IMG/VR virus record: IMGVR_UViG_3300050821_018642
Span: 5,133 to 69,132 of that record
DNA from: a virus
DNA: 64,000 nt
Direction: 5' to 3' (one strand)
Program-made: the position numbers and the translations under genes
Part shown: in pieces, positions 3,525 through 51,659 of the stretch
Layout of the letters: each line of letters opens with the position of its first letter
How positions within the stretch are numbered: position 1 is the stretch's first letter
The notes under the pieces: model-generated
Told to the model about the DNA's origin: nothing
Seen by the model: the letters and a program-made list of their open reading frames with translations, nothing else
Database searches by the model: none

Positions 3525-3564
3525 CCGCGAGCGTTTTTCAGGCGCTGCAAGGAGCGCACTACAA

Positions 3565-4032
3565 ATGGCAAACAAGACCAAGAACATCCCGCTTGGCGGG
3601 CACACGTACAGGCTGCGTAAGTTGGGCGTGGACGAGGGCAGTCACATCTTCATGCGCATGATGGGCGCGATCATTGAGGCGCGCAGTAAGCTCGCCCATC
3701 AATCCACCGACGAACCTACCGAGGAAGAAAGCAAGAAGCTGACCGACGAAGAGCGGGCTAAGGTGTTGGTCGGCCTGTCCTTCATGAATGGATTCAGCTT
3801 CGAAGACGCCAAGTTCGCGCGGCACCAGGCCCTGTTGGCGGTGGACCGCGTGGAGACGCTGGCGACCGGAGAAGTTTGCATCCAAATCATGCTGACCGAC
3901 GGTAGGTGGTCGCCAACGCCGGATGGATGGCCGGACCTGGAGGAGGACGCTGCCACCAGGCAGGAATTGGTGGTGGAGGCGTTGACGTTCAGCATCGCGC
4001 CTTTTTTCTCCAAAGCTGGCGCGAAGAGCTGA
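3565..4032 (+). CDS. tail assembly chaperone (gpG-like)
   Basis: RBS AAGGAG; acidic 155-aa protein just upstream of the tape-measure gene; ends a few codons after the slippery site. Confidence 0.55.
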   Translation: MANKTKNIPLGGHTYRLRKLGVDEGSHIFMRMMGAIIEARSKLAHQSTDEPTEEESKKLTDEERAKVLVGLSFMNGFSFEDAKFARHQALLAVDRVETLATGEVCIQIMLTDGRWSPTPDGWPDLEEDAATRQELVVEALTFSIAPFFSKAGAKS

Positions 4033-4250: not shown

Positions 4251-5819
4251 ATGCCAAACTTCTTGGATGAATACCTTGTAAAACTGGGCACCAGCGTCGA
4301 CCAGGCCGGATTCGCGCGGTTCCATCAAGCATTGCGCGAGGCTTCCAGCGCTGTGGACGCGAACGCCATCAACATGGCGAAGTCGTTGTTCAAGGCGCAG
4401 AACGAGATAGTGGCCGGTTTTGCCGCCATAGGTGGTGCCGCGCTGGGCCTCGTCGACAAAGTGGCTATGGCGGACCAAGAGTACCGCCTGTTCGCTCTGC
4501 ATATGTATATGTCCAAGGATGCCGCGCGCGGACTGAAGATCGCCATGGACGCGCTCGGACAGCCGCTCGAGAACCTCGCTTGGGACCCGGAGCTGCGCGG
4601 TCGTACGTCCAAGCTGCTGCAAGACCAACGCGCGATGGCCCCGCAAGGCGACTTCGACGAGCAGATGCGCAAGATACGGGACGTGCGCTTCGAGTTCACG
4701 CGCATGGAAGTCGAGATACAGTATCTCGGTCTGCACGTGGTACAGGACTTCATGAAAGCGCTGGGAATGGGCTCGGACGATTTGTTGCGCAAGCTGCGCG
4801 AGTTCAACGACTGGGTTACGCATCACCTTCCGCAGATATCGCAGTGGGTGGTGAACAACTTCATGCCGGTTTGGCAGGACATCAAGATGATACTAGGCGA
4901 CGTCGTGAGCATCACGCGCGACCTCGCCACGTTGTTTGACAATATCATCGGATTGATCAGCGGGGATTCCACGCTCACGGGAGTGGCCAACTTCGACAAG
5001 TTCGCGCGCTCCGTGGGCAAGGTGGTGCATTGGTTGGCGCTGGCCGCGCATTTCCTTTTGCAGATAGAAGGAACGTTGATGGGCGTGATAGGTGGAGGCG
5101 CGACGGGCGGAACCGTCGGATCCATCATCGGCGGCATCATGGGCATACCGGGCGGTCCTGCCGGCATTGCCGGCGGAATCCTGGCCGGTGGTGCTACAGG
5201 CACGGCCATCGGGGCAGCCGCCGGAGGCGCAGGTGGAGCCGCGTTCGATTTGATGCGCCACCTTGGCGTAGGTCCGTTCGGTAGCGGTAACTCATCGAAC
5301 GGCGATAATTCGTCGTACGCGCAGATAGCATCCGGCTCGCCTTTGATACAAGCAATGATGGCGCAGGAAAGCGGCGGTCGTCAGAGCGCTGTGTCTAGTA
5401 AGGGTGCCATCGGTTTGATGCAGCTTATACCCGGCACCGCTAGATCTCTAGGCGTAGATCCCAACGACCCGGCACAAAATTTGGCTGGCGGCGTACGCTA
5501 CATGGACATGCTGTTGAAGCAGTACAATAGCGTGCCATTGGCTTTGGCCGCGTACAACGCCGGTCCTGGTAGGATCGATGCGGTACTGGCCGGCAAGGCA
5601 TCATTGCCTGCCGAGACGCAGAATTACGTACGTAGCATCATGGGTAAGATGGGCGCTAAGGGTGATATACAGATAGGCACCGTCACGATACATATCACAC
5701 AGCCCAACGCCAGCCCGCGTCAGATACAAGAGGCAGTCACCAACGGCGTAGTCAACGCGAGGGAGAAGCAGATGCAGCGCAATCTGGCCGAGTTTGCCGA
5801 CCTGAGTCCGAGCTACTGA
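4251..5819 (+). CDS. tape measure protein with C-terminal lytic transglycosylase (SLT) domain
   Basis: Follows the frameshifted chaperones; Gly-zipper segment GGGATGGTVGSIIGGIMGIPGG; SLT signature AQESGGRQ...GLMQL...AYNAGPGR. Confidence 0.65.
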   Translation: MPNFLDEYLVKLGTSVDQAGFARFHQALREASSAVDANAINMAKSLFKAQNEIVAGFAAIGGAALGLVDKVAMADQEYRLFALHMYMSKDAARGLKIAMDALGQPLENLAWDPELRGRTSKLLQDQRAMAPQGDFDEQMRKIRDVRFEFTRMEVEIQYLGLHVVQDFMKALGMGSDDLLRKLREFNDWVTHHLPQISQWVVNNFMPVWQDIKMILGDVVSITRDLATLFDNIIGLISGDSTLTGVANFDKFARSVGKVVHWLALAAHFLLQIEGTLMGVIGGGATGGTVGSIIGGIMGIPGGPAGIAGGILAGGATGTAIGAAAGGAGGAAFDLMRHLGVGPFGSGNSSNGDNSSYAQIASGSPLIQAMMAQESGGRQSAVSSKGAIGLMQLIPGTARSLGVDPNDPAQNLAGGVRYMDMLLKQYNSVPLALAAYNAGPGRIDAVLAGKASLPAETQNYVRSIMGKMGAKGDIQIGTVTIHITQPNASPRQIQEAVTNGVVNAREKQMQRNLAEFADLSPSY

Positions 5820-25963: not shown

Positions 25964-25974
25964 ATTTACTGGGG

Positions 25975-26031
25975 CAGCCCAGCGGCGCATCGGCTCGAAT
26001 CATTCGAGTCAAGCGCCGCTGGGCTATTTTT
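25975..26031 (+). terminator. rho-independent terminator of the late (+) operon
   Basis: Stem cagcccagcggcgc / gcgccgctgggct with a nested ctcgaat/attcgag hairpin, followed by ATTTTT. Confidence 0.45.
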
Positions 26032-26104
26032 GCGTCTATAGGGTCCATTTTGGACCAAAAACAACCCCAAATCGCCCTGGCTACGATGGTTTCAGGACTT
26101 TTGG

Positions 26105-26135
26105 AGTGGGTTTAACCACCCAAAACCGGCTGAAT
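26105..26135 (-). terminator. rho-independent terminator of the early (-) operon
   Basis: Stem cggct/agccg just past the last - strand stop; on the - strand it is followed by GTTTTGGGT. Confidence 0.35.
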
Positions 26136-26141
26136 AGCCGT

Positions 26142-26471: not shown

Positions 26472-26991
26472 AGCATTCCTCCCATGTAGTGTATACAGCG
26501 TGAATGACCTCGGCTTCCAACGGACTCAACGTGTCGTCCGGGAATGTACGACGGATGTAGTCCTTCCACCGTCGTACGCTGAAGTTCACTTTGCGATTCC
26601 CCATAGCGCGCTCGTCGCAACACCAAAGAATACCGTCCAAGCGATCAGCAAGATCCAGTATACGTCGCTCTTCGAGCGTCAACGGAAATAGCAGATCATA
26701 CTTGGACAGAGTATCAGTTTCCAACTTCTCGAATTTTGCTGAAAACTCTGGGCCCATTTCCCACTTGAACGGTGCTGGCATATCACCGGAAGCTTGCTCG
26801 GCTAGATCGTGCGTGGCTGCCATCATCAGTAGATTGGAGCTAGGCATACCATCGCTTAGAAAGAACACCAGCAGAATAACGCCGTGTTGATGTTGTGCGT
26901 TGGTATTACGTAGAATACCCATACGCGTATGGAATCGCGTTACCAGACCGCCTTCGTGTGCGAACTGTATACGCTCTTTGATTGACTTCAC
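26428..26991 (-). CDS. HD-domain phosphohydrolase (YfbR-like 5'-deoxynucleotidase candidate)
   Basis: H...H(x21)HD...E...GD metal-binding motif spacing: HTRMGILRNTNAQHQHGVILLV...ATHDLAEQASGD. Confidence 0.55.
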   Translation of the reverse strand: MKSIKERIQFAHEGGLVTRFHTRMGILRNTNAQHQHGVILLVFFLSDGMPSSNLLMMAATHDLAEQASGDMPAPFKWEMGPEFSAKFEKLETDTLSKYDLLFPLTLEERRILDLADRLDGILWCCDERAMGNRKVNFSVRRWKDYIRRTFPDDTLSPLEAEVIHAVYTTWEECCGQEGSSRFDIYEV

Positions 26992-28094
26992 TTCTGCCTC
27001 CGCTCAATCCACTCATTACACGCGCGCTTCCAATCCGGCGCTTCTATACCGTCAAGACAGGTGAACATACTGTATGAATCTTTCCATTTGCGATACGTCC
27101 AGGTTAGGAACATCGGAATAGCAACGGTCTCCATGAAAGCTGTATTCATGGGCGGTACGTTGAACGCCGCTTCCCACGCCGCTGGTGTCGGGTCGTTGAT
27201 ACCTACAGTATCAGGCGGTTGTGGTTGACGTATAAGACCGCGCGCCCACGTCATGAACTTCGATAGGTCCTCATCGAAGCCGGGTTCCAGCGCCGGACCC
27301 ATGTCTGGAAGCTTACCTAGTGAATCGCTCTCCAGCGCAATTTGTTCCAGCTTCTCTCGGTTAAAGACATCGGTATAGACATGAAAGTTGTTACTAAACT
27401 GCCGATACACACCCATCGGAATGCCGATGCGCATTGCCATGTACTCGTGGAAGAAACTGAAGTGCACGGCGTTGGCTCCGTAGCAACCCCATATGATGTC
27501 ATTGCTGCGATTGCATACGGTAATATTCAACTTCCCACCGCGACAATCCAGATATACGTGCGTATTGCACGGAACATCCAGACCACCGTGGGTGGCTACC
27601 TGTAGGTCGTGGTCATGTAGATCTGGATTGTCGCGATTCATCGTGCGATTCTGATCGTAATCCCCGGCTCCAGGCCAAGCATTCCACATCGTCAGCACAC
27701 ATCGCCTGGATTTAGGGTCTTTCTTTAACTCTGCTATGATGGCCTCCAGCTGGTCCCAGCCGAAGAAGTTGCGCCAACGCCAGCCGTATGCACCCCACGA
27801 TGTAACGCCGTCGTCGCTATAGGCGCGCATCTGCTTAGCGAAGTATTCGACGAACTCTACGTCGTTGGCACCGCTGAGAATCCAGAGCGATTCCATAACG
27901 TGGAAGAAAGGATTTGCATCACGTAGCGGGCTGAATAGCACGCGGCGACGTGGGTTTACGTACTCCGTAAGCACTGGACCCGGTGCAACGATCACCGAGC
28001 CATTGCGCGATTGTTCCTCTACGCCTTCACGTAGAAGATAGTTGATGCCGATCTGTAATGCGGCATTTACATCATCGGTCTTAAAGCTATACAT
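26988..28094 (-). CDS. thymidylate synthase-family enzyme (dUMP hydroxymethylase candidate)
   Basis: Aligns to ThyA along its length: ESLWILSG, YGWRWRNFFGWDQLEAII..LK.DPKSRRCVLTMWN, VPCNTHVYL..GGKL..CNRSNDIIWG.YGAN. His147 of ThyA is replaced by Asn, and there is a ~100-aa C-terminal extension. Start ATG at 28094 has a GAGGAG RBS. Confidence 0.65.
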   Translation of the reverse strand: MYSFKTDDVNAALQIGINYLLREGVEEQSRNGSVIVAPGPVLTEYVNPRRRVLFSPLRDANPFFHVMESLWILSGANDVEFVEYFAKQMRAYSDDGVTSWGAYGWRWRNFFGWDQLEAIIAELKKDPKSRRCVLTMWNAWPGAGDYDQNRTMNRDNPDLHDHDLQVATHGGLDVPCNTHVYLDCRGGKLNITVCNRSNDIIWGCYGANAVHFSFFHEYMAMRIGIPMGVYRQFSNNFHVYTDVFNREKLEQIALESDSLGKLPDMGPALEPGFDEDLSKFMTWARGLIRQPQPPDTVGINDPTPAAWEAAFNVPPMNTAFMETVAIPMFLTWTYRKWKDSYSMFTCLDGIEAPDWKRACNEWIERRQK

Positions 28095-28965
28095 ACGTCT
28101 CCTCGCTCGGTGTGAAGTGCTGCTTCGCTCTACGTCCAAGGTATTTTACCTTGAAGTACTTTCCTATTTCGCAAAGTGTGTTCTGCGTGTCTTGGGCCGA
28201 CAGACCGTGCAGTTCGCTCGGTAGCTTCGGGAGTGCTGTATCCATCAACTTCAGTAACGTGCTGTGCCACTCTTCTTCATTCCAACGCTCTGTGACGTCG
28301 CGACCCGTTACCCAGTTCAAACCACGTCGCGAGCCTGGACCACTAGCGGCAAAGGTATGCCAGTCGTCAGCGTTCTTGCCGGCCGGAGTGTACTTGACAT
28401 CGCCCACTACCTGCGCTGCCATAAAGCCAGCACCGAATCCGTGGAACTGCATCAGCGAATTATGTAGTCCACGTAGTGATGTACAGGTACGCAGCTCTTC
28501 GCCCAGCGCTTTGCGTCCTGACCACAATGGACCCAGTACGCACGTAGACAGGTAGCTAGCCTTGCTTTGACCTTTGGTAGCGCCAACTGCATTTATCATA
28601 TACGCATTATTGTAGGCGCAAAGACCGCGCTCACGTCGTGCATCCATGATACGTACGAAGCGCTGCGGATTCCAGCGTTCTGGGTAGCCTAGTTCCTCCA
28701 TAGTGGCTGGTAGATTCACCAGCCGTGCAAGGCACATAGCGAATACCACGGTATCATAATCCGTGGCGTGCGGAAGAAGCCATGATCCGTGTATCCATTT
28801 AGTAACGCGGTCGTCGTTACGACGCACGTTCGTAAAGCGGTACTTCTGAAGTATTGGATCCTTGGTCCAGGGTGCTGGTTTACCTTCCAGACGACGTTGA
28901 TGGATGTTCCACCGCTCCGTTACGAAGTCAGTGAATTCCCTAAGCCTTGGAAACAGCTTGCTCAT
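28087..28965 (-). CDS. uncharacterised protein, candidate DNA-modification enzyme
   Basis: 292 aa with no P-loop; translationally coupled between the ThyA-homologue and the nucleotidyltransferase. Confidence 0.4.
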   Translation of the reverse strand: MSKLFPRLREFTDFVTERWNIHQRRLEGKPAPWTKDPILQKYRFTNVRRNDDRVTKWIHGSWLLPHATDYDTVVFAMCLARLVNLPATMEELGYPERWNPQRFVRIMDARRERGLCAYNNAYMINAVGATKGQSKASYLSTCVLGPLWSGRKALGEELRTCTSLRGLHNSLMQFHGFGAGFMAAQVVGDVKYTPAGKNADDWHTFAASGPGSRRGLNWVTGRDVTERWNEEEWHSTLLKLMDTALPKLPSELHGLSAQDTQNTLCEIGKYFKVKYLGRRAKQHFTPSEETYV

Positions 28966-29692
28966 ACGCCTCCAGTTGCTCTGGGGTGCCTACCACATGA
29001 AATTCCTTCTCCGGTATTTCGTGGAGAAGTACGTCGCCCATACGCAGCATATAACTGTGTACTGGAGCTAGGTAGAACTCGCCATTCGTGGAGTTGTCGT
29101 AGAATACCATAGCCGCGATTGCAGCACGTAGCCTACTCCACGTCTTAAATACGTGGACGCCGCACGTAGCCATGTCGCTGATAGGCTGCTTCTCCACGAT
29201 GCGTGTAACTTCTTGGCCTTCATACTCCACGAAGCTGTAACGCGCGCTACCGTCCGTCGGCTTGAACGTCAGCACCATGGATACGGTGGAACTGAGCGGA
29301 TGTGTGAAGTGCGCCTCCGCGTGCGCTACAAACGCCTTGATAAGCGCTGGATCGATGATACTGTCACAATCCATTACCAGCACCGGCTGGTCTTCGTCCA
29401 GGACGGCTGCGGCTGCAAGAAGCGTCATAGCCGCGCCGCGCTGCGTATGCTGTACGCCGATGATCTTAGGTACGCAATCCTCCGGCGCTTCCGTCCATAC
29501 ATCATGTCGAATGGATTGTGGACATAGTACGATGGCTTCGTGAATTTCCGTACCCAAAGACACAGCCATAGCCTGTCTAAGTGCATACCATATCATAGCA
29601 TGCCCGTTGACCGGTATGAGCGGTTTCATCTGTGTATAGCCAGCGCTTGCAAAGCGATCGCCGCGCCCAGCGGCTAGGATTACTACTTGCAT
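28940..29692 (-). CDS. sugar-1-phosphate (or phospho-alcohol) nucleotidyltransferase
   Basis: N-terminal MQVVILAAGRGDRF...KPLIPVNGHAMI NTP_transferase signature; RBS GGAGGA 6 nt before ATG 29692. Confidence 0.6.
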   Translation of the reverse strand: MQVVILAAGRGDRFASAGYTQMKPLIPVNGHAMIWYALRQAMAVSLGTEIHEAIVLCPQSIRHDVWTEAPEDCVPKIIGVQHTQRGAAMTLLAAAAVLDEDQPVLVMDCDSIIDPALIKAFVAHAEAHFTHPLSSTVSMVLTFKPTDGSARYSFVEYEGQEVTRIVEKQPISDMATCGVHVFKTWSRLRAAIAAMVFYDNSTNGEFYLAPVHSYMLRMGDVLLHEIPEKEFHVVGTPEQLEAYEQAVSKA

Positions 29693-30495
29693 TTGACTTC
29701 CTCCATTCGTTCTTCGAGATTCATTGCGAGGTTCAGTGCCCACTCCCTGGCATGTGGCTGTACCTTGTACAGCCGTACCAGGTGTGTAACGAGGTAGTAA
29801 GCGCAAAGTTCCAGGTTAAGCCGCTCCACTTGTAAGAACGCTTTGATCATCTCGCGTTCCACAACGTCACAGCTAGTGGTACAAGCTATGCTGTCATAAC
29901 CGAAGAACGACTGCAGAAGCTTGCCGCCGTCCAATTCAGCCTCTAGCGGAAGCGGTCTTGTGGATGGATCAATCCACAAGCCACCAGCCATGATGTTCTC
30001 CAGCGTAGGATCACCGTGTACATTCTTCACCATACGGTTTCCAGTTATCCAGCGTGCTCCGCCTTTCCACGTCTGTTTTAGTACTTCACGAAGCGCAGGT
30101 TCTGTTGCCAATTCAAGCTGCTCTTCGTAATCGTACGCACGATCACGCTCAGCTCCGCCTACCCAGTGTGGTACCTTCCACAACACTGATAAGCGTACAA
30201 GTGCATTAGCCGTGTCTTCCATCGTAGCTGGTCCAAGCATAGGCATGAAGTAAGAACACGCATTTTCGTCGGAATCACCGAATTCTACTTCCACGAATAT
30301 TTCTGGGAAATGTCGCATCTTTACAGCTTGACGCACCACTCCCGGTCCGCTCTTGCGTATCCATGGTTCCAGCGTCGCTCCGGAGTTACGCTTCACTTTG
30401 TTATCTATCACCACCACGTTCTCCTGTTCTCCGTACAAGTATTCTTCACAGTCCTTACACAACCCAGATGCCTCCATACAACGTGGACAGCTCAC
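29683..30495 (-). CDS. APH/choline-kinase-fold kinase (anomeric sugar kinase candidate) with N-terminal zinc ribbon
   Basis: Catalytic loop VHGDPTLENIM (HGDxxxxN) and LWIDPS; CPRC...CKDC at the N-terminus; GTGA overlap with the upstream gene. Confidence 0.5.
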   Translation of the reverse strand: MSCPRCMEASGLCKDCEEYLYGEQENVVVIDNKVKRNSGATLEPWIRKSGPGVVRQAVKMRHFPEIFVEVEFGDSDENACSYFMPMLGPATMEDTANALVRLSVLWKVPHWVGGAERDRAYDYEEQLELATEPALREVLKQTWKGGARWITGNRMVKNVHGDPTLENIMAGGLWIDPSTRPLPLEAELDGGKLLQSFFGYDSIACTTSCDVVEREMIKAFLQVERLNLELCAYYLVTHLVRLYKVQPHAREWALNLAMNLEERMEEVKCK

Positions 30496-31352
30496 TTCTT
30501 CACTCCGCTGGACTCGTAGGCCTTCTTCCAGGCCACCACCACTTCCTTGCGCTTGATGGAGCCCTTGTAATCGCGGTCCACCACTTTGACGAACGGCGCG
30601 TGCAGCTTCTGTAGTACGAAGCACTGTGCGTCGCTGTACTCCATGGAGCGCTCGCCCGAGCAGCCTCCGGCCGCACCGAAGCTTCCGTATTCGTTGTTCA
30701 GGAGCTCCACGAAGCTGTGACCCTGTTCGCCTTTACGCAGCATACTCAGTACAACGTGGAAGTCCTCGCGCAGCCCGACGGCATCGAATCGAATCTTGTA
30801 CTTCTTGTAGCGCTCCGGGTCTACACCGAAGGCGTACATCATCCGGCCGTTGATATGCCACGATTCCTTCTGCTTGTCGCTGTGGCGTCGGTGCGCTATA
30901 CCGAGCATGGCCGGTGCGTGAGTGCCGTAGCGGGCGTCCAGTTGCTCAAATAGCTTCAGCAGCACGGCGTCTTTGGGGTAGCGCCGCATCATCAAGGCGG
31001 TCCCGGTTGGAGCTCCAGGCTTGATGCCGTAGGCCTGTCGGTCTTCCTCCCATACACGCCACTTGGGTGGGCACCGTTCGAAGAACGCAATGTCGTCGTC
31101 CATCATAAACAGGAGACGATCTCCGTTCTTCGGTAGGTTCGTCATGATCCAGTGACGTTTGGCCGCGATGGACTTTGTGCCCTTCGCTAGAACCACCTCA
31201 TTGTCTGGGTACAGCGCTTGTAGCGCCTTGGCTTCTTCCGGAAGCGACGGAACCAGTACCACTTCCTTCTGTAACGACGTAGGCAGTGCGCCCAGCGTGA
31301 TCTGTTTGTTTACGCGTCCATGCGTAGGTATGACAAGCGTGATGTTCTTCAC
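30492..31352 (-). CDS. GT-A-like glycosyltransferase
   Basis: N-terminal ITLVIPTHGR and DxD-like FMMDDDIAF; RBS AAGGAG. Confidence 0.45.
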   Translation of the reverse strand: MKNITLVIPTHGRVNKQITLGALPTSLQKEVVLVPSLPEEAKALQALYPDNEVVLAKGTKSIAAKRHWIMTNLPKNGDRLLFMMDDDIAFFERCPPKWRVWEEDRQAYGIKPGAPTGTALMMRRYPKDAVLLKLFEQLDARYGTHAPAMLGIAHRRHSDKQKESWHINGRMMYAFGVDPERYKKYKIRFDAVGLREDFHVVLSMLRKGEQGHSFVELLNNEYGSFGAAGGCSGERSMEYSDAQCFVLQKLHAPFVKVVDRDYKGSIKRKEVVVAWKKAYESSGVKK

Positions 31353-31461
31353 AGGCTAAAGCTCCTTGCTGAATTTAAGAAATGTATCCAGAGACACGAA
31401 TGCCGCCCGATACGCTGGGCGGCATTGTAGATTACAGAAAACTAATTCTGACTTTCTGGTC

Positions 31462-33498
31462 TTAGACTACCTTGATGTAGCCCTGCTTCGCGAGCCACGC
31501 GATCTCGATGCGGCGACCCGGCTTGGGGTTCTTCTTGTCTTTGTCCAGCTTGGCCTGCGCCTCGCTTACTGTCTTGCTGCTGAGCGCGGCGTTCACCTGA
31601 GCGAAGCAGAAAGTTCCTTCGCGAAGCTCGTTCTTCTTTTTGAGCGCCTTGATCTCGCGATCCGCGACGACGCGCTCGACCTTTTCCTTTGGAGCCTTCT
31701 TGGTTGCTTCTTTCTTCGAAGGAACTGCGACTGGTCCCTTCTTACCGGTCTTGGCGGGAGGAGCAAACTTTGCGGACTTGATGGATACGGCTGCTGATGC
31801 TGTCATGGCTACGATCTCCTTGCAGTGGTTTAGAACTGCGGTTAGGTGGCGCGCGGCCACTGGCGTTACTGCTACCGAAGGTACAATGGGATTCAGTAAC
31901 TGGTTCGCGGCTTTAATCAGCTCATCTACTTCTCTGGTAATCGGCCGCAATCTGTTCAGTTTCTCGTTCGGGATTACCCCACAGGCAACCCTCACACCAT
32001 TATTATACACGCAAATTGCGCCTTGTGAATTTGCGGGCTCCAACTGCATCATGGCGATACCGTTAGTTGGGTCTTCCAGAAGACGTATAGAATCCTTGTC
32101 CAAGACTACCTCCGCATCCGGCTTAGGCACCGGGTACTGTTCAGCCGTCACGGCTAGTGAGTAGATCACTTCGCGACGAGCAGCGTTATCATAAGCGGCA
32201 CGTGCCTTCTTGCTCATGGGCGTGCCGGTGTCCAGGATGGTGCCCGGGACGGTACGCTCCATGACGGTAGCGCGTTTCACCTGAGCTATCTGGGCCTTCT
32301 CCGCACGTGTAGCCGCACTCTTCAGGGTGCGAATCTTAGTGCTGACTTCCTTACAGCGCTTTGCGAATGCCGTAGACTTCGCTGCAGCGGAGCGTCCTTC
32401 TACGCCTATCGCACTGTAGAATGCCTCGGTGAGATTATTGATGCCGCATTCTTTGGCTAGTATACGATCGCGTTTGAAAAGCTGCTTCAGAAGCGCCATC
32501 CGCTTACCGTAATACTTGTCGCCGCGTAGAAGGTCCAGATCGAAGCGCTGAAGCGTCAATCCGCCTAGCATCTCGACGGCTCGTACCACGTGGGACGGTA
32601 CGCCGTCTATCGTTTCTACGCGTACATTCTGTGGCGACAGTAGGCCTTTCGCAGCCAGGTCCAACACGGAACGCCCCTCGGCTACAGCAGCTTCAGTCTT
32701 CGCCTGATCAGCGGCCAATCGCTTAGCACGACGCTGGTCCGACGCCAGCGCCTTATTGCAGAGACTCTTAGTAGCCGTTGAAGCCAGCGTAGCCTGCAGT
32801 TCCTTCACGCTAGTTCCGCCGCGCTCCAGTCCATTCTTCGCCATCAGCTTGTAGCCAGCACCCGGGACGTACATCACGGCGCGTCCATCCGCATGACTGT
32901 AACCATACGCTACGCGCTTACCGGTACCGCCCGGCTGCGCACTTTCCTGTGCCTGAATGAACGTGAACCTGGACTTGATCAGTTCCGCGTTAATAGCGTC
33001 CTCCGGCGGTACCAGCTTCGCTGGTGCAGGCTTCTTCTTGGAAACCGTCGCGCTGAGTTCGGTGAGACGCTCGGCCTTATCGTCTTGCTCCTTGGCTTCT
33101 TCCAGTGCTTCTATCTTCGCGGGATCATCAGCCAACGTACGACGTCCAGTCGTCGGATCTACTTTACGCGTTCTAGCGTATTCCAGAACTGGATCATCAA
33201 CACCTAGATTGACCGCTGTATGCCCATTCGACGCGTGCTTGGCCTCCAGGAATTGGCTACGCAGTTTCTGCGCCGTCGCCATGTTGGTTTTCAGGCGTCC
33301 GGCCAGTACGTTCATGGGTGTATCCGCCTTGGTGGTCAGGATCTCCACGCATTTTGTATAGAGATCATCACCGGCTGCGGCTACTACGACGGCTGCGGCC
33401 TCACTACTGACTAACGGTAGACCATCGTACTTGGAAAGTACTGGTGCGTTAACATTGGACTTCGCGACGTCGGCCTTTACAGCAACTTTCTTTGTCAT
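31462..33498 (-). CDS. large hypothetical protein (678 aa)
   Basis: Long Lys/Ala-rich ORF with coherent codon usage; RBS inside a conserved stem-loop. Confidence 0.5.
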   Translation of the reverse strand: MTKKVAVKADVAKSNVNAPVLSKYDGLPLVSSEAAAVVVAAAGDDLYTKCVEILTTKADTPMNVLAGRLKTNMATAQKLRSQFLEAKHASNGHTAVNLGVDDPVLEYARTRKVDPTTGRRTLADDPAKIEALEEAKEQDDKAERLTELSATVSKKKPAPAKLVPPEDAINAELIKSRFTFIQAQESAQPGGTGKRVAYGYSHADGRAVMYVPGAGYKLMAKNGLERGGTSVKELQATLASTATKSLCNKALASDQRRAKRLAADQAKTEAAVAEGRSVLDLAAKGLLSPQNVRVETIDGVPSHVVRAVEMLGGLTLQRFDLDLLRGDKYYGKRMALLKQLFKRDRILAKECGINNLTEAFYSAIGVEGRSAAAKSTAFAKRCKEVSTKIRTLKSAATRAEKAQIAQVKRATVMERTVPGTILDTGTPMSKKARAAYDNAARREVIYSLAVTAEQYPVPKPDAEVVLDKDSIRLLEDPTNGIAMMQLEPANSQGAICVYNNGVRVACGVIPNEKLNRLRPITREVDELIKAANQLLNPIVPSVAVTPVAARHLTAVLNHCKEIVAMTASAAVSIKSAKFAPPAKTGKKGPVAVPSKKEATKKAPKEKVERVVADREIKALKKKNELREGTFCFAQVNAALSSKTVSEAQAKLDKDKKNPKPGRRIEIAWLAKQGYIKVV

Positions 33499-33609
33499 GT
33501 GTGTATGCGGTCCTTTCTAACCGCTGCACTACTTACCTTGTTAGAAAAGCTATGAACAGCGCAATCGCGCACAGCGCGAGCATCAAGCGTTCGTACCGTT
33601 CCTGACGAG

Positions 33610-34654: not shown

Positions 34655-35485
34655 TTACCGCACCGCCATTTCTGCGTTGTTGAGTTCGCGTTGGAAACCG
34701 TTCCACTCGTTGACGCTCATGTTGTTGGAAATCGTAATTTCCTTGACACTGTAACGCTTTCGTTCGCCAGTAAGCGGAAGGAATTCCACGGTCTTCATCT
34801 TCTTGTAGTCAGCGGCGTTCACGTATCCCCACACCGACCCACCACAGAAGTGGTGTACAGCCGGAATTAGATTCGCGTTGTTCTTTAGGTAGCCGAGCCA
34901 ACTAGCTTGACCGATCTTCTGTTCGTCGGCCGCGCGCTCTTCGCGGCAAGCCACGCCGTGAGCCTGACCAATACGCAGCCGTTCATCGCGGTCGGTAACG
35001 CCGTGCAGCTTATAGGCGAGTGTACCCGGGACGTGAGGATTCTGAGGAGTGGGCGCTTCCACGTACGCCCGGATTCCATCTAGCGCTGCGATGAACTGGC
35101 TAGTGTAGCCAATCACGCCGTTCCACGTCAGGTACATGTCAAAGAGTTCTTCGACGGTGGAATTCTCCATCACGAAGTCGGCGTCATCATGCGGCCGATT
35201 TTCTTCCAGGAACTCGCGGATATCGCTATCGACGTTGGATGGAAGCGAGGATGACTTGGATACCGTCTTCTTCTCTACAGGTACATCCAGTTCCAGTGCT
35301 TCTGGAGTAGCCCACGCTTGCACTCCGCCGTAGCCCTTCTTGACGACGATGTGACCGTCGCGGCGAAGGTGGACGACTTCCGTATGGATCGTAGCGCCAC
35401 CATGACGGTAAATTACCTTGTCGCCCTTCTTGAACTTCGAGGTCGTTTTCTGGCTAACTGCTTGATTCTGCTTGGATTGCTTCAT
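34655..35485 (-). CDS. hypothetical protein
   Basis: 276 aa; RBS stem-loop GCCGTTAGAAAGGACGGC upstream of the ATG. Confidence 0.5.
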   Translation of the reverse strand: MKQSKQNQAVSQKTTSKFKKGDKVIYRHGGATIHTEVVHLRRDGHIVVKKGYGGVQAWATPEALELDVPVEKKTVSKSSSLPSNVDSDIREFLEENRPHDDADFVMENSTVEELFDMYLTWNGVIGYTSQFIAALDGIRAYVEAPTPQNPHVPGTLAYKLHGVTDRDERLRIGQAHGVACREERAADEQKIGQASWLGYLKNNANLIPAVHHFCGGSVWGYVNAADYKKMKTVEFLPLTGERKRYSVKEITISNNMSVNEWNGFQRELNNAEMAVR

Positions 35486-35486
35486 T

Positions 35487-35504
35487 TGTCAGGCCGTCCT
35501 TTCT
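35487..35504 (-). promoter_or_regulatory. conserved RBS-containing stem-loop GCCGTTAGAAAGGACGGC
   Basis: AGGA in the loop, 12 nt before the ATG; paralogous copies at 33504..33521 and 40553..40570. Confidence 0.35.
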
Positions 35505-35600
35505 AACGGCTACCTAAATTATAACTCGGATTTCTGGCCAAGAAAAGGTTTATTTTCTGGCCTTTAGGCCCAACTTTGCGATGCAAAGTCTACTACGGTT

Positions 35601-37025: not shown

Positions 37026-37874
37026 CTACCTCCTAGCGATGAATAGTTTCTTACTCGGTGGCTTAAATGGTTTCTCTGCTGGCCCTTTGATGTATGAATC
37101 AACAAATACAGCTCGCAATTCTTTGCGATCAGGTCCACAACGGTACTTGTGCCAATGTTCTTCTACCATCCATCTACAGGTGTAGTCACGATTAGCAGAG
37201 CCTTCACTTTCAGAGTGTTGTAACCGACGCAAAGTCACTACACGATACTCAGCAGGTAGGACATAACCTTTACGTTTTGCCAATGTGCGGCCTATAGACG
37301 TAGATTGCTGTCGTTCGATGGTGGCCAGTTTCTGTGCCATTAAATGAATTATGGCAGCAAACAATCTCAATCGTTTAGACTCACTACTAGCTGATTGTAA
37401 AGGTTTATTTAAAAAGCCTGTAGATTGTAGTAAATGTATTGCACCAACTTTCGCACTGATGTTTGTATACAGAAAGTGTATTGCATTCCAAGGATCTTGT
37501 TCCACAACACCAACAGTAGATGCTGTACACCACAATAAAGTATCTACTGGTTGGCCGTCAAGTAAAGTTGTTCTAGGTAAGTATAAAGCGCCTATAGGTG
37601 ACAAGAATTCTTCCTCTGCCAATACAAACTCCGGAGGCATAGTTTCAGCAGCACGTTCAGCTAACAATAGAAATTCCTCACTTAGAAAGAACTTCTCACC
37701 ATTTTGTAGTACCAGCCCAGCCATTGTGATGTAAGCACGCTGAACATTTGTAGAGTTATCGCCAGTTGCTCTAGGCGGCGGGAGCGCTTTCTGCAGTATT
37801 ACGTTAAACACAGATGTTTTCTCAAAAGCATTCAGTATACTAGCCAGCATTACGCCATCATCCTTTCCGCACAC
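37026..37874 (-). CDS. hypothetical protein encoded in a low-GC island
   Basis: 282-aa ORF; a sampled 100-nt stretch is 33% G+C against ~60% in the flanks. Confidence 0.5.
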   Translation of the reverse strand: MCGKDDGVMLASILNAFEKTSVFNVILQKALPPPRATGDNSTNVQRAYITMAGLVLQNGEKFFLSEEFLLLAERAAETMPPEFVLAEEEFLSPIGALYLPRTTLLDGQPVDTLLWCTASTVGVVEQDPWNAIHFLYTNISAKVGAIHLLQSTGFLNKPLQSASSESKRLRLFAAIIHLMAQKLATIERQQSTSIGRTLAKRKGYVLPAEYRVVTLRRLQHSESEGSANRDYTCRWMVEEHWHKYRCGPDRKELRAVFVDSYIKGPAEKPFKPPSKKLFIARR

Positions 37875-39130: not shown

Positions 39131-39296
39131 CGTCCTCCGTATCCACGAAACCCAGGTCCGCGTTCAGCCGCTCCACGGCGTCGGCTTTCAGCATCAAGCG
39201 TTTTGCACCGGCTGGGATGTCCAGGCACGCGTCGTTCAACAGACCCTCCGTGATGTCGTCGTACGTAAGTACGAGTACGTTACCAGTCAGTATCAT
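39114..39296 (-). CDS. hypothetical acidic small protein
   Basis: 60 aa with a DTEDDDESD tail. Confidence 0.25.
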   Translation of the reverse strand: MILTGNVLVLTYDDITEGLLNDACLDIPAGAKRLMLKADAVERLNADLGFVDTEDDDESD

Positions 39297-39625
39297 AGCA
39301 CCACCTTCGCGCAGTTGACCGTCAAGTCCTCGTACTTCTCACTGATCAAGTCGCACGCCGTATGCATAGCGTGCCACAGGTTATCCAGCACTCGGTATTG
39401 GCTAGTGCCGTGCATGCGGTCTCGCTGCTCCATTATCTTCAACGAGGTGTCGAAGTTACGGAACGGCCAGACTACATCTATCTTGCGATCCAGTGGCTTG
39501 GACCGCAGTAGCAACTGCGCTAGGAATCCGTTCTCACGCGCGGTACCGAACTTGGTTTCATCGCCTATCTTGCACCCGGCCATGACACATACGCAGTCGT
39601 AGTGCAGCTTCGCCAACTCCACCAA
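39293..39625 (-). CDS. hypothetical protein
   Basis: 110-aa ORF. Confidence 0.3.
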   Translation of the reverse strand: MVELAKLHYDCVCVMAGCKIGDETKFGTARENGFLAQLLLRSKPLDRKIDVVWPFRNFDTSLKIMEQRDRMHGTSQYRVLDNLWHAMHTACDLISEKYEDLTVNCAKVVL

Positions 39626-40089: not shown

Positions 40090-40302
40090 TCACGCAGCAC
40101 CTCCGGTGACAAGGCAGCCCCACATCAAAACAGGGGAGGCAATCGGATGCAGTTTGACGTTCGTCATCAATTCAAAGTCCGACCCACAAGGTACGTAGGA
40201 CACGCTGATAATGGAGTCTTCGACGTACAGCGCATCTTCGTAACCAGCCGGAACATACCTAGTGCCTTCTTCGAGTATGAGTTGCTCCAGAAGAGTCGTC
40301 AT
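40090..40302 (-). CDS. hypothetical protein
   Basis: Trimmed to the ATG overlapping the upstream stop. Confidence 0.3.
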   Translation of the reverse strand: MTTLLEQLILEEGTRYVPAGYEDALYVEDSIISVSYVPCGSDFELMTNVKLHPIASPVLMWGCLVTGGAA

Positions 40303-40544
40303 GCGCTCACCGCCTTCATCGCGCCGATGTGTCGAATGCCGGTATCCAGCGTTATGACGCTGTAGCCGGAACGTAGAAGATCCAGCTGCGCTTCTGCGGC
40401 TCCACGTGAGCCCCATGTGGTGGACGGAACCACACCGTTGTAAACAAGCATCCAGTGTCCCCTGAGACAGAACACTTCGTTGGGAAGTAGCTTCACTTTC
40501 GCGGCTACGTCGTAGTCGCGGTTTACCTTTCTGGTTGTCTTCAT
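40299..40544 (-). CDS. hypothetical protein
   Basis: Start moved to the Met at 40544 because a promoter-like TATAAT plus a conserved RBS stem-loop lie inside the longer ORF. Confidence 0.35.
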   Translation of the reverse strand: MKTTRKVNRDYDVAAKVKLLPNEVFCLRGHWMLVYNGVVPSTTWGSRGAAEAQLDLLRSGYSVITLDTGIRHIGAMKAVSA

Positions 40545-40578
40545 GATGGATAGCGGTCCTTTCCGAGCCGCTGTATTC

Positions 40579-40598
40579 ATTATAAACCAGCTGGTTTA
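40579..40598 (-). promoter_or_regulatory. promoter-like TATAAT overlapping perfect palindrome TAAACCAGCTGGTTTA
   Basis: Seen in sequence; a similar element lies at 57082..57101. Confidence 0.35.
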
Positions 40599-40609
40599 TT
40601 GCGTACGAA

Positions 40610-51469: not shown

Positions 51470-51659
51470 TCACTTCCTCCTTGTAAGTACACTCAAGCTA
51501 CGCATCTTCACGCAGTACACTCAATTCACGGCTCCTTTAAGATGTAGTCGTTCGTCCGCAGTTACAAAGTAACCACGCCTAGTCTCCACCTATATACTGC
51601 GACCAGTCGGAGTGACGCAGTATCGCGCTGGTCGCGGAGCCGTGAATGGAGGGTACCTA

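Follow-up and report, generated by a model that had tools for sequence, protein, structure and literature searches.

The window analysed here is the whole stretch of 64,000 nt (64 kb) taken from IMG/VR record IMGVR_UViG_3300050821_018642 (positions 5,133 to 69,132). Its source is an uncultured phage with rightward structural genes from 1 to ~26,000 and leftward replication, nucleotide-metabolism and small genes from 64,000 to ~26,100. Our subject is a set of TATAAT hexamers that precede leftward genes at 40.58 kb (S1), 57.09 kb (S2) and 35.52 kb (S3), together with two associated elements: an inverted repeat (the dyad) fused to the hexamer at S1 and S2, and a leader hairpin that presents a Shine-Dalgarno sequence in its loop at S1 and S3. 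The features of these sites, with predicted functions where given, are as follows.

40299..40544, minus strand: first gene of the S1 unit, 81 aa
40552..40572, minus strand: S1 leader hairpin AGCGG/CCGCT, with the Shine-Dalgarno sequence GAAAGGA (40563..40557) in the loop; −9.3 kcal/mol
40572, minus strand: predicted S1 transcription start, an A 7 nt after the −10 hexamer, placed from the family matrix
40579..40584, minus strand: putative S1 −10 hexamer TATAAT, with no recognisable −35 element
40583..40598: S1 dyad, the perfect 16-nt palindrome TAAACCAGCTGGTTTA, at about −26 to −11 from the predicted start; candidate operator
56124..57050, minus strand: first gene of the S2 unit, 308 aa
57082..57087, minus strand: putative S2 −10 hexamer TATAAT
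57086..57101: S2 dyad TAAACCAGTTAGTTTA, an imperfect palindrome with 6/8 symmetric pairs; ortholog TAAACCGGCTAGTTTATAAT at L085:1112..1085
57104..57109, minus strand: putative S2 −35 hexamer TTGCCA, with a 16-nt spacer and an 11/12 match to the sigma-70 consensus
57129..57377, minus strand: small orphan protein of 82 aa with weak LuxR/GerE-like signals, immediately upstream of S2
34655..35485, minus strand: S3 gene, with its ATG at 35485
35493..35510, minus strand: S3 leader hairpin GCCGTT/GACGGC, with AGAAAG in the loop; −8.8 kcal/mol, z −2.7
35518..35523, minus strand: putative S3 −10 hexamer TATAAT, with no adjoining dyad
35550..35557, minus strand: S3 A-rich sequence GAAAATAA, 26 nt upstream of the −10 hexamer, at the position of a proximal UP element
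33507..33524, minus strand: Shine-Dalgarno hairpin GCGGTT/GACCGC without a TATAAT, upstream of a 678-aa gene; E=1.2e-7, z −4.4

At S1, the palindrome (40598..40583) and TATAAT (40584..40579) share two bases and form the combined site TAAACCAGCTGGTTTATAAT at 40598..40579 (−), which lies in the minus-strand context cgcaa-TAAACCAGCTGGTTTATAAT-gaataCAGCGGctcggaaaggaCCGCTatccatcATG. The end of TATAAT is 34 nt from the ATG at 40544, and GAAAGGA precedes that ATG. The combined site at S2, TAAACCAGTTAGTTTATAAT at 57101..57082, is 31 nt from the ATG at 57050. Both the overlap at S1 and a second copy at 57082–57101 upstream of gene 56124..57050 had been recognised in an initial annotation of this DNA and are borne out here, except that the second palindrome, listed there as a repeat of the perfect one, is symmetric in only 6 of 8 pairs. 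That annotation also listed a third TATAAT, which does belong to the same kind of promoter; the position given (35513..35508) is off by ten bases, however, and the actual hexamer at 35523..35518 has no adjoining palindrome. The nearest TAAACC to S3 is 23 nt upstream, as part of the A-rich GAAAATAAACC stretch. When the 20-mer is searched against the 64 kb with up to 3 mismatches, only S1 and S2 are recovered, plus the palindrome's own reverse match (0.00 expected in 100 shuffles), and TAAAC-N4-8-GTTTA does not occur in the window outside S1 and S2. A TAAACC inside a gene at 37407 was considered as a further site and rejected as coding sequence. The minus strand carries five TATAAT hexamers over the 64 kb, three of which are intergenic and lie 31–34 nt before start codons.

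The window has no annotated close relative, as no protein-level match exceeds 40% identity. Its nearest cultured relatives are Stenotrophomonas phage AXL3 and Pseudoxanthomonas phage PW916 (39–40% amino-acid identity); neither the helicase nor the DNA polymerase is more than 40% identical to theirs. At the DNA level, none of 50,697 phage records is matched by the locus in megablast. In metagenomes, the helicase has 2,337 homologues (E≤1e-60), with identities of 60–79% for the best of them, on contigs of up to ~105 kb. Using helicase homologues (52–79% identical) and a second conserved protein, we retrieved ~15 related loci, the closest of which is L020 (helicase 79%); L085 is from the same contig. 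IMG/VR searches with the 308-aa and 276-aa proteins return no relatives, a metagenome scan gives no phage that had not been found before, and the exact 20-mer is matched in IMG/VR only twice, by chance, in AT-rich contigs. A scan of GTDB genomes also finds no relative and thus gives no prophage or host clue.

Across the related loci, all that have a sizeable stretch of sequence contain perfect coding-strand TATAAT hexamers in intergenic gaps, the small contigs L019 and L023 having none. In 227.6 kb, consisting of the window's leftward block and 10 related loci, TATAAT is found 39 times on the coding strand versus 10 times on the opposite strand, with ~30 per strand expected from composition. 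The majority of coding-strand copies (25/39) are in a promoter context, which is to say 18–50 nt before a start codon with a ribosome-binding site. The hexamer is therefore avoided outside positions in which it could function. A matrix of 29 sites has G (18/29), G (20/29), K (G or T) and T (18/29) directly before TATAAT and an AT-rich run of 5 nt directly after it, with no C at the first base. Further downstream are a pyrimidine (C or T) at +6 (21/29), A at +7 (21/29) and G at +8 (20/29). An A-rich stretch 27–33 nt upstream corresponds to −45 to −39 from the predicted start, which is the position of a proximal UP element, and the A-rich motif of S3, GAAAATAA, is seen again in relatives at 25–27 nt. 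The matrix contains no −35 consensus; S1 and S3 match that element in at most 3 of 6 positions, and S2 has TTGCCA at 16 nt. The strand bias, the conserved flanks (GGKT-TATAAT-N5-Y-A-G) and the −35 hexamer of S2 uphold the earlier assignment of TATAAT as a −10 element.

The promoter that follows the helicase gene, represented by S1 in the window, is present in all relatives, with one extra gene in between in some (L004, L018). The cultured phages AXL3 and PW916 have TTTACA-17-TAGAAT at this place. Among the ~60 window proteins scanned, none is recognised as a phage RNA polymerase or sigma factor. From sequence comparison, it is thus highly probable that the TATAAT sites of this family are promoters for the host housekeeping (sigma-70-type) polymerase. 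A simple sigma-70 scan over the region does not exceed chance (13 versus 13.0 expected; 7 versus 12.4), and the promoter case therefore rests on the exact TATAAT and the comparative data. Against the assignment, S1 is without a −35 element, which makes its activity with the host polymerase alone uncertain. We also considered TATAAT as an RNase E site between two hairpins and rejected it, as a loose cleavage preference for AU-rich sequence could not account for an exact TATAAT persisting at a genomic GC content of 50–65%. The 864-aa protein was likewise rejected as a polymerase, having vault-protein domains instead.

A related observation is found inside the 678-aa gene (31462..33498), where TTCACA-16-TATAAT (32002–32029, minus strand; 11/12 to consensus) is part of the coding sequence for ...SQGAICVYNNG.... 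TAT-AAT encodes this Tyr-Asn in 10/10 relatives examined, including a genome of 63% GC, and the surrounding DNA is nearly identical. This sequence conservation suggests a conserved internal promoter or some other constraint at the nucleotide level.

Most promoters of the family are followed by a stem of 5–7 bp, which begins exactly 5–6 nt after TATAAT, at the predicted start. The loop contains GAAAGGA or GAAGGAG, and the start codon is 3–9 nt past the stem. We observe at least 12 different stem sequences in which pairing is kept, at a fixed TATAAT-N5-stem spacing. A covariance model built from five copies gives 13 matches at E≤0.35, 12 of them on the coding strand; of the 8 matches beyond the seed copies, 7 are on the coding strand upstream of genes, including that of S1 (40550–40576, E=0.047). 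In the stem alignment, 98.5% of cells are paired, compensatory changes occur in 4/5 pairs, and the score is reached in 0/500 shuffles, with the caveat that the alignment was fitted to the covariance model, which somewhat favours structure. Sliding the partner columns reduces pairing to 31–57%. RNAalifold on a MAFFT alignment yielded no structure, the loops being misaligned, and it was the small seed alignment with the covariance model that resolved the hairpin. No Rfam family or tRNA is detected in the window.

The S2 leader forms no stable hairpin (−3.0 kcal/mol, z +0.96), while the hairpin at 33524..33507 stands without a promoter, as it does at orthologous sites in L007, L010 and L012. Promoter and leader hairpin are thus separable modules. 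On the plus strand, we also observe a hairpin presenting a ribosome-binding site (GCGCT-gcaagg-AGCGC, 3536–3561) before the structural gene 3565..4032; it is a weak match to the covariance model (E=5) and suggests that the leader hairpin is not restricted to the leftward block.

In the model that we propose, S1, S2 and S3 would be host sigma-70-type promoters, each heading a leftward unit in the replication and nucleotide-metabolism half of the phage. The core promoter would consist of a perfect −10 TATAAT after GGKT, with a −35 element that is weak or absent except at S2 and, in some copies, an A-rich UP-like stretch. The conserved A 7 nt downstream of the −10 hexamer would be the first transcribed base, a start site that we infer from the matrix; at S1 and S3, this A is the first base of the hairpin or one base before it. 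The loop would display the Shine-Dalgarno sequence, such that the ribosome site stays exposed, and because the message would begin base-paired, it should resist decay that needs a free 5′ end. The dyad, TAAAC-N6-GTTTA with its right arm fused to the −10 hexamer, would be an extra element of the window's sub-clade. We consider the explanation as a whole, comprising promoters, leader hairpin and candidate operator, to be reasonably probable from the sequence comparisons.

Stem-loops at the 5′ terminus are known to stabilise bacterial mRNAs, the ompA leader being one example. The hairpin described here resembles these in its extreme 5′ position on the predicted transcript, with 0–1 unpaired bases. 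Unlike that of the ompA leader, its loop also carries the ribosome-binding site, and stabilisation is expected here from the position of the stem. The nearest described analogue is found in Cluster K mycobacteriophages, in the short repeats called Start-Associated Sequences (SAS, ESAS), which precede start codons by a few bases in the non-structural genome half (PMC3203893). The SAS, GGGATAGGAGCCC, contains a Shine-Dalgarno core with symmetric flanking bases and sometimes has inverted repeats upstream (PMC3203893). In contrast to the leader hairpin, the SAS is conserved in sequence and is not tied to a −10 hexamer, whereas the stem in our family varies and covaries and is mostly placed 5 nt after TATAAT.

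The dyad is more narrowly distributed than the promoter. The post-helicase dyads are TAAACCAGCTGGTTTA in the window, TAAACTAGCTAGTTTA at L020:11515, TAAACTAGGCGGTTTA at L007:11529 and TAGACTAGGCAGTTTA at L008:11510, while those of the S2 site are TAAACCAGTTAGTTTA in the window and TAAACCGGCTAGTTTA in L085; L008 additionally has TAAACCGCAGGGTTTA at its S3 equivalent. TAAAC-N6-GTTTA is shared by 4 phages, at 6 sites in total; it keeps its arms and 6-nt spacing but differs in the centre (CAGCTG, CAGTTA, TAGCTA, CGGCTA, TAGGCG, CGCAGG), and its distance to the −10 hexamer is fixed in 6 sites. The L020 16-mer TAAACTAGCTAGTTTA is again a perfect palindrome, and it is set apart from that of the window by two symmetric changes, C6 to T and G11 to A. 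The S1 right arm shares 2 nt with the −10 hexamer, and the S2 dyad is within the promoter spacer. As the flanks of S1 and S2 are unrelated, conservation of the dyad is confined to the 20-mer. The dyad is restricted to the window's sub-clade. Partial or respaced forms are also found: CCTAAC-N7-GTTAGG in L005, TAAACCC-N14-GGGTTTA in L004, and AAAAC-AG-GTTTA in L004 and L018.

We tentatively favour a DNA-level operator as the role of the dyad, at which a dimeric DNA-binding protein would block polymerase and so shut the units off. The half-site centres are 11 bp apart, or about one helical turn, with the dyad centred near −18.5, and this geometry suits a dimeric helix-turn-helix protein that excludes polymerase. 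By its sequence, S2 is a near-consensus promoter with a dyad in the spacer, the classic layout of a repressible promoter. An operator is the best reading because most copies barely fold as RNA: the predicted energies are −6.1 kcal/mol for S1 (2 GC pairs), −1.2 for S2, −2.4 for L020 and −7.3 for L008b, and in L085 and L008a, the arms are unpaired in the minimum-energy fold. The operator postulated in the initial annotation is plausible within the sub-clade, where the arms are kept in L020, L085, L007 and L008, as that annotation asked of related phages; the dyad is absent from more distant relatives.

Several findings weigh against an operator. The dyad is missing from S3 and from relatives whose helicase is at most 66% identical, in which the promoter is nonetheless kept, and it is thus not needed for promoter function. 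Only the left arm counts as independent evidence, since the right arm is already constrained within the GGTT(T)ATAAT core, and the AAAAC of L004 and L018 is only 2 nt from GGTTTATAAT, a spacing unfit for the same dimer. The enrichment of any dyad beside a −10 hexamer is modest (9/25 family promoters versus 13.5% of controls, p=0.004). No Pfam helix-turn-helix domain is found among the minus-strand proteins of the window, and no candidate for a dyad-binding protein emerged; small novel proteins are possible regulators. In the first set of loci that we compared, a 110-aa protein of the window (39293..39625) has homologues in L007 and L008 only, both of which carry the dyad. Finally, L007 can form a strong GC hairpin that overlaps the site (CCGCCT-TAAACT-AGGCGG followed by TTTAT; −12.2 kcal/mol, z −3.7), and some arm mismatches (L008a, L012a) are G:T rather than A:C, as pairing in RNA predicts.

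The last two points bear on an alternative in which the dyad acts as RNA, as the 3′ hairpin of the upstream transcript (the helicase or LuxR-like operon). It would then be a weak intrinsic terminator or 3′ stabiliser, the U-tract of which is TTTATAAT of the next promoter, making for a compact terminator-promoter junction. Dyad sites do come directly after stop codons, and hairpin-forming sequence is seen not only in L007 but also at L004:155 (TAAACCC-N14-GGGTTTAT), while L011:17943 and Manatee Spring phage have clear GC hairpins just 5′ of the −10 hexamer; moreover, the L020 change from C:G to U:A keeps pairing, and some arm mismatches are compatible with G:U. However, 4/7 compact dyads scarcely fold, the arms are AT-rich with 1–2 GC pairs, none passes a terminator scan, and only the stem of L007 is convincing. 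Even there, TAAAC stays in the loop and other bases form the stable stem, and terminators conserve pairing rather than sequence, whereas TAAAC is conserved as sequence. The poor folding and the looped-out TAAAC of L007 make this alternative a weak one, and we consider it quite improbable, although a handful of G:T mismatches and the hairpins that precede other promoters of the family speak for it.

A different alternative, which we judge unlikely though less so than action as RNA, is that the dyad is part of the promoter itself, with TAAAC (about −26 to −22) and GGTTT (−16 to −12) being contacted by RNA polymerase, a phage activator or a sigma-remodelling factor. Such contact would substitute for the −35 element, as in T4 MotA middle promoters or with MerR-type activators. 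This would fit the lack of a −35 element at S1 and its orthologs, the fixed distance from dyad to −10 hexamer, the conservation of GGTT(T) before TATAAT in relatives far outside the left-arm clade, and the proximity of AAAAC to GGTTTATAAT in L004 and L018. S2, however, carries the dyad despite a good −35 hexamer at the optimal 16-nt spacing, and MerR-type activation requires spacers of 19–20 nt. No activator, MotA/AsiA-like protein or sigma factor is detected among the proteins scanned, and the symmetric double change in L020 preserves the palindrome, which one-sided contact by polymerase does not require. What remains after the operator, promoter-element and RNA readings falls to the dyad having no separate function.

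As for the protein that would bind the proposed operator, the initial annotation pointed to the product of the gene adjoining S2 (57129..57377), which it called a LuxR-type helix-turn-helix protein. Support for that label comes from the JGI name (NarL/FixJ-family regulator) and from weak matches, the top ones all being of LuxR/GerE type: in a comparison of sequence with the PDB, the DosR C-terminal domain is matched at E=0.29, and the best Foldseek folds are GerE, DosR and LiaR, all non-significant at E≥0.55. No Pfam family, GerE included, is matched even at E=10, and an AlphaFold2 model made without an alignment has low confidence (pLDDT 58), with helices in about the expected layout. LuxR/GerE-type proteins bind inverted repeats of 16–20 bp as dimers, which would agree with the dyad. 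In 5.8 billion sequences, however, the only homologue of this protein is itself, and no LuxR-like sequence is found in the loci examined. S2 is also downstream of the gene rather than upstream. In the closest relative, the same interval is flanked by the DnaJ-like and 308-aa genes and the dyad promoter is intact, yet an unrelated 61-aa open reading frame (ORF) takes the place of the LuxR-like gene, its TAA stop being the first three bases of the dyad. The adjacency to S2 is thus probably coincidental. With both dyads retained in this relative, the LuxR-like protein is probably not the dyad-binding protein, and its being the dimeric repressor seems very improbable.

Operators placed over the −10 hexamer or spacer of sigma-70 promoters are familiar from lambdoid PR/OR1 and from the phage 434 operators (ACAA-N6-TTGT). 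With these, the dyad shares conserved arms of 4–6 bp, a variable centre of 6 bp, half-sites about one helical turn apart, a location inside the core promoter and the presence of more than one copy per genome. It differs in arm sequence and in having only two copies, which head ordinary replication-module operons of an apparently lytic phage, and the window phage has neither a cognate Cro/cI-type gene nor a divergent switch region.

A likeness in sequence is seen in six IMG/VR contigs that are unrelated to the window (L033, L048, L052, L056, L080 and L081). Their TAAACY-N4-RGTTTA reproduces the 5-6-5 dyad and is joined to TATAAT in an identical register. Because the search pattern forces the dyad, these contigs show only that such sites serve as operators elsewhere. 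Unlike the window, they have TTGACA-17-TATAAT and a divergent neighbouring gene of Cro/C1 type (HTH_3), a profile of which has no match in the window; the likeness is one of analogy and not homology. In four of them (L033, L048, L056 and L081), a small HTH_3 gene is divergent from TTGACA-17-TATAAT with TAAACC-N4-GGTTTA in the spacer, and a further TAAACC half-site is found near the start of the repressor gene itself. This locus is probably a genetic switch region.

The post-helicase promoter of AXL3 and PW916 offers a comparison at the same genomic position. It too has a perfect palindrome against the −10 hexamer (GTGTGATCACAC-TAGAAT) and a hairpin that begins ~7 nt after it, while the sequence and length of the palindrome, the good −35 hexamer (TTTACA), the TAGAAT and the location of the ribosome-binding site outside the hairpin loop are different from the window. 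Two nested inverted repeats are seen in both phages (L013:13480–13570 in AXL3 and L014:3510–3600 in PW916), with TTGTAA...TTACAA around the −35 hexamer and the perfect 12-mer GTGTGATCACAC at TAGAAT. This looks like an unannotated operator region; in the literature on AXL3, we found nothing on promoters.

The dyad marks the S1 and S2 operons as probably co-regulated and supplies a bait sequence in the search for a regulator. More generally, the promoter and leader model can now be used for a large clade of phages that only metagenomes have revealed, with the nearest cultured phage being ~40% identical, where it helps to delimit operons and suggests expression parts for the host. Current views of phage gene regulation are not overturned by it. 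A bolder proposal, to which we give a modest chance on sequence grounds, is that the dyad is the operator of a small phage repressor from an unrecognised family and that, with the start-locked hairpin, it makes up a clade-specific cassette acting at two levels, transcription initiation and the stability or translation of the mRNA 5′ end. This proposal includes a temporal switch based on modified T. We observe a thymidine-hypermodification set at 26988–31352 (−), which consists of a 5-hmdU DNA kinase, a TET-associated glycosyltransferase, a thymidylate-synthase-like protein, a nucleotidyl transferase and a dCTP deaminase, and in relatives ADDT, radical SAM/SPASM and DUF6011 are present as well. 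Modified T would fall within TATAAT and the dyad arms. If T in TATAAT and GTTTA is indeed modified, the polymerase and the regulator could read parental and progeny DNA differently, giving such a switch.

Several other features of the leftward block were observed. The early region encodes a DnaJ-domain protein (57634–58065, minus strand; E=3.8e-7), which is kept in relatives and is annotated in AXL3 as well. The 864-aa protein (61357–63951, minus strand) matches two vault-protein domains that are unusual for a phage, the shoulder domain of the Major Vault Protein (E=2.5e-21) and a vault repeat domain (E=4e-10), and it has no match in PHROGs. A 190-nt gap without ORFs (51470–51659, minus strand) contains the long-range inverted repeats CATTCACGGCTCC...GGAGCCGTGAAT and GCGACCAG...CTGGTCGC and two copies of the direct repeat TTGAGTGTACT. 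Rfam has no match to this gap, which could encode a structured RNA or have a role in replication. The 864-aa gene is followed by a strong terminator-like hairpin (AAGGCACGGAC...GTCCGTGCCTT-CTTTT at 61283–61356, minus strand), as is the 678-aa gene (GCCGCCC...GGGCGGC at 31395–31425, minus strand), and more terminator-like hairpins are found where the convergent gene blocks meet (25964–26141).

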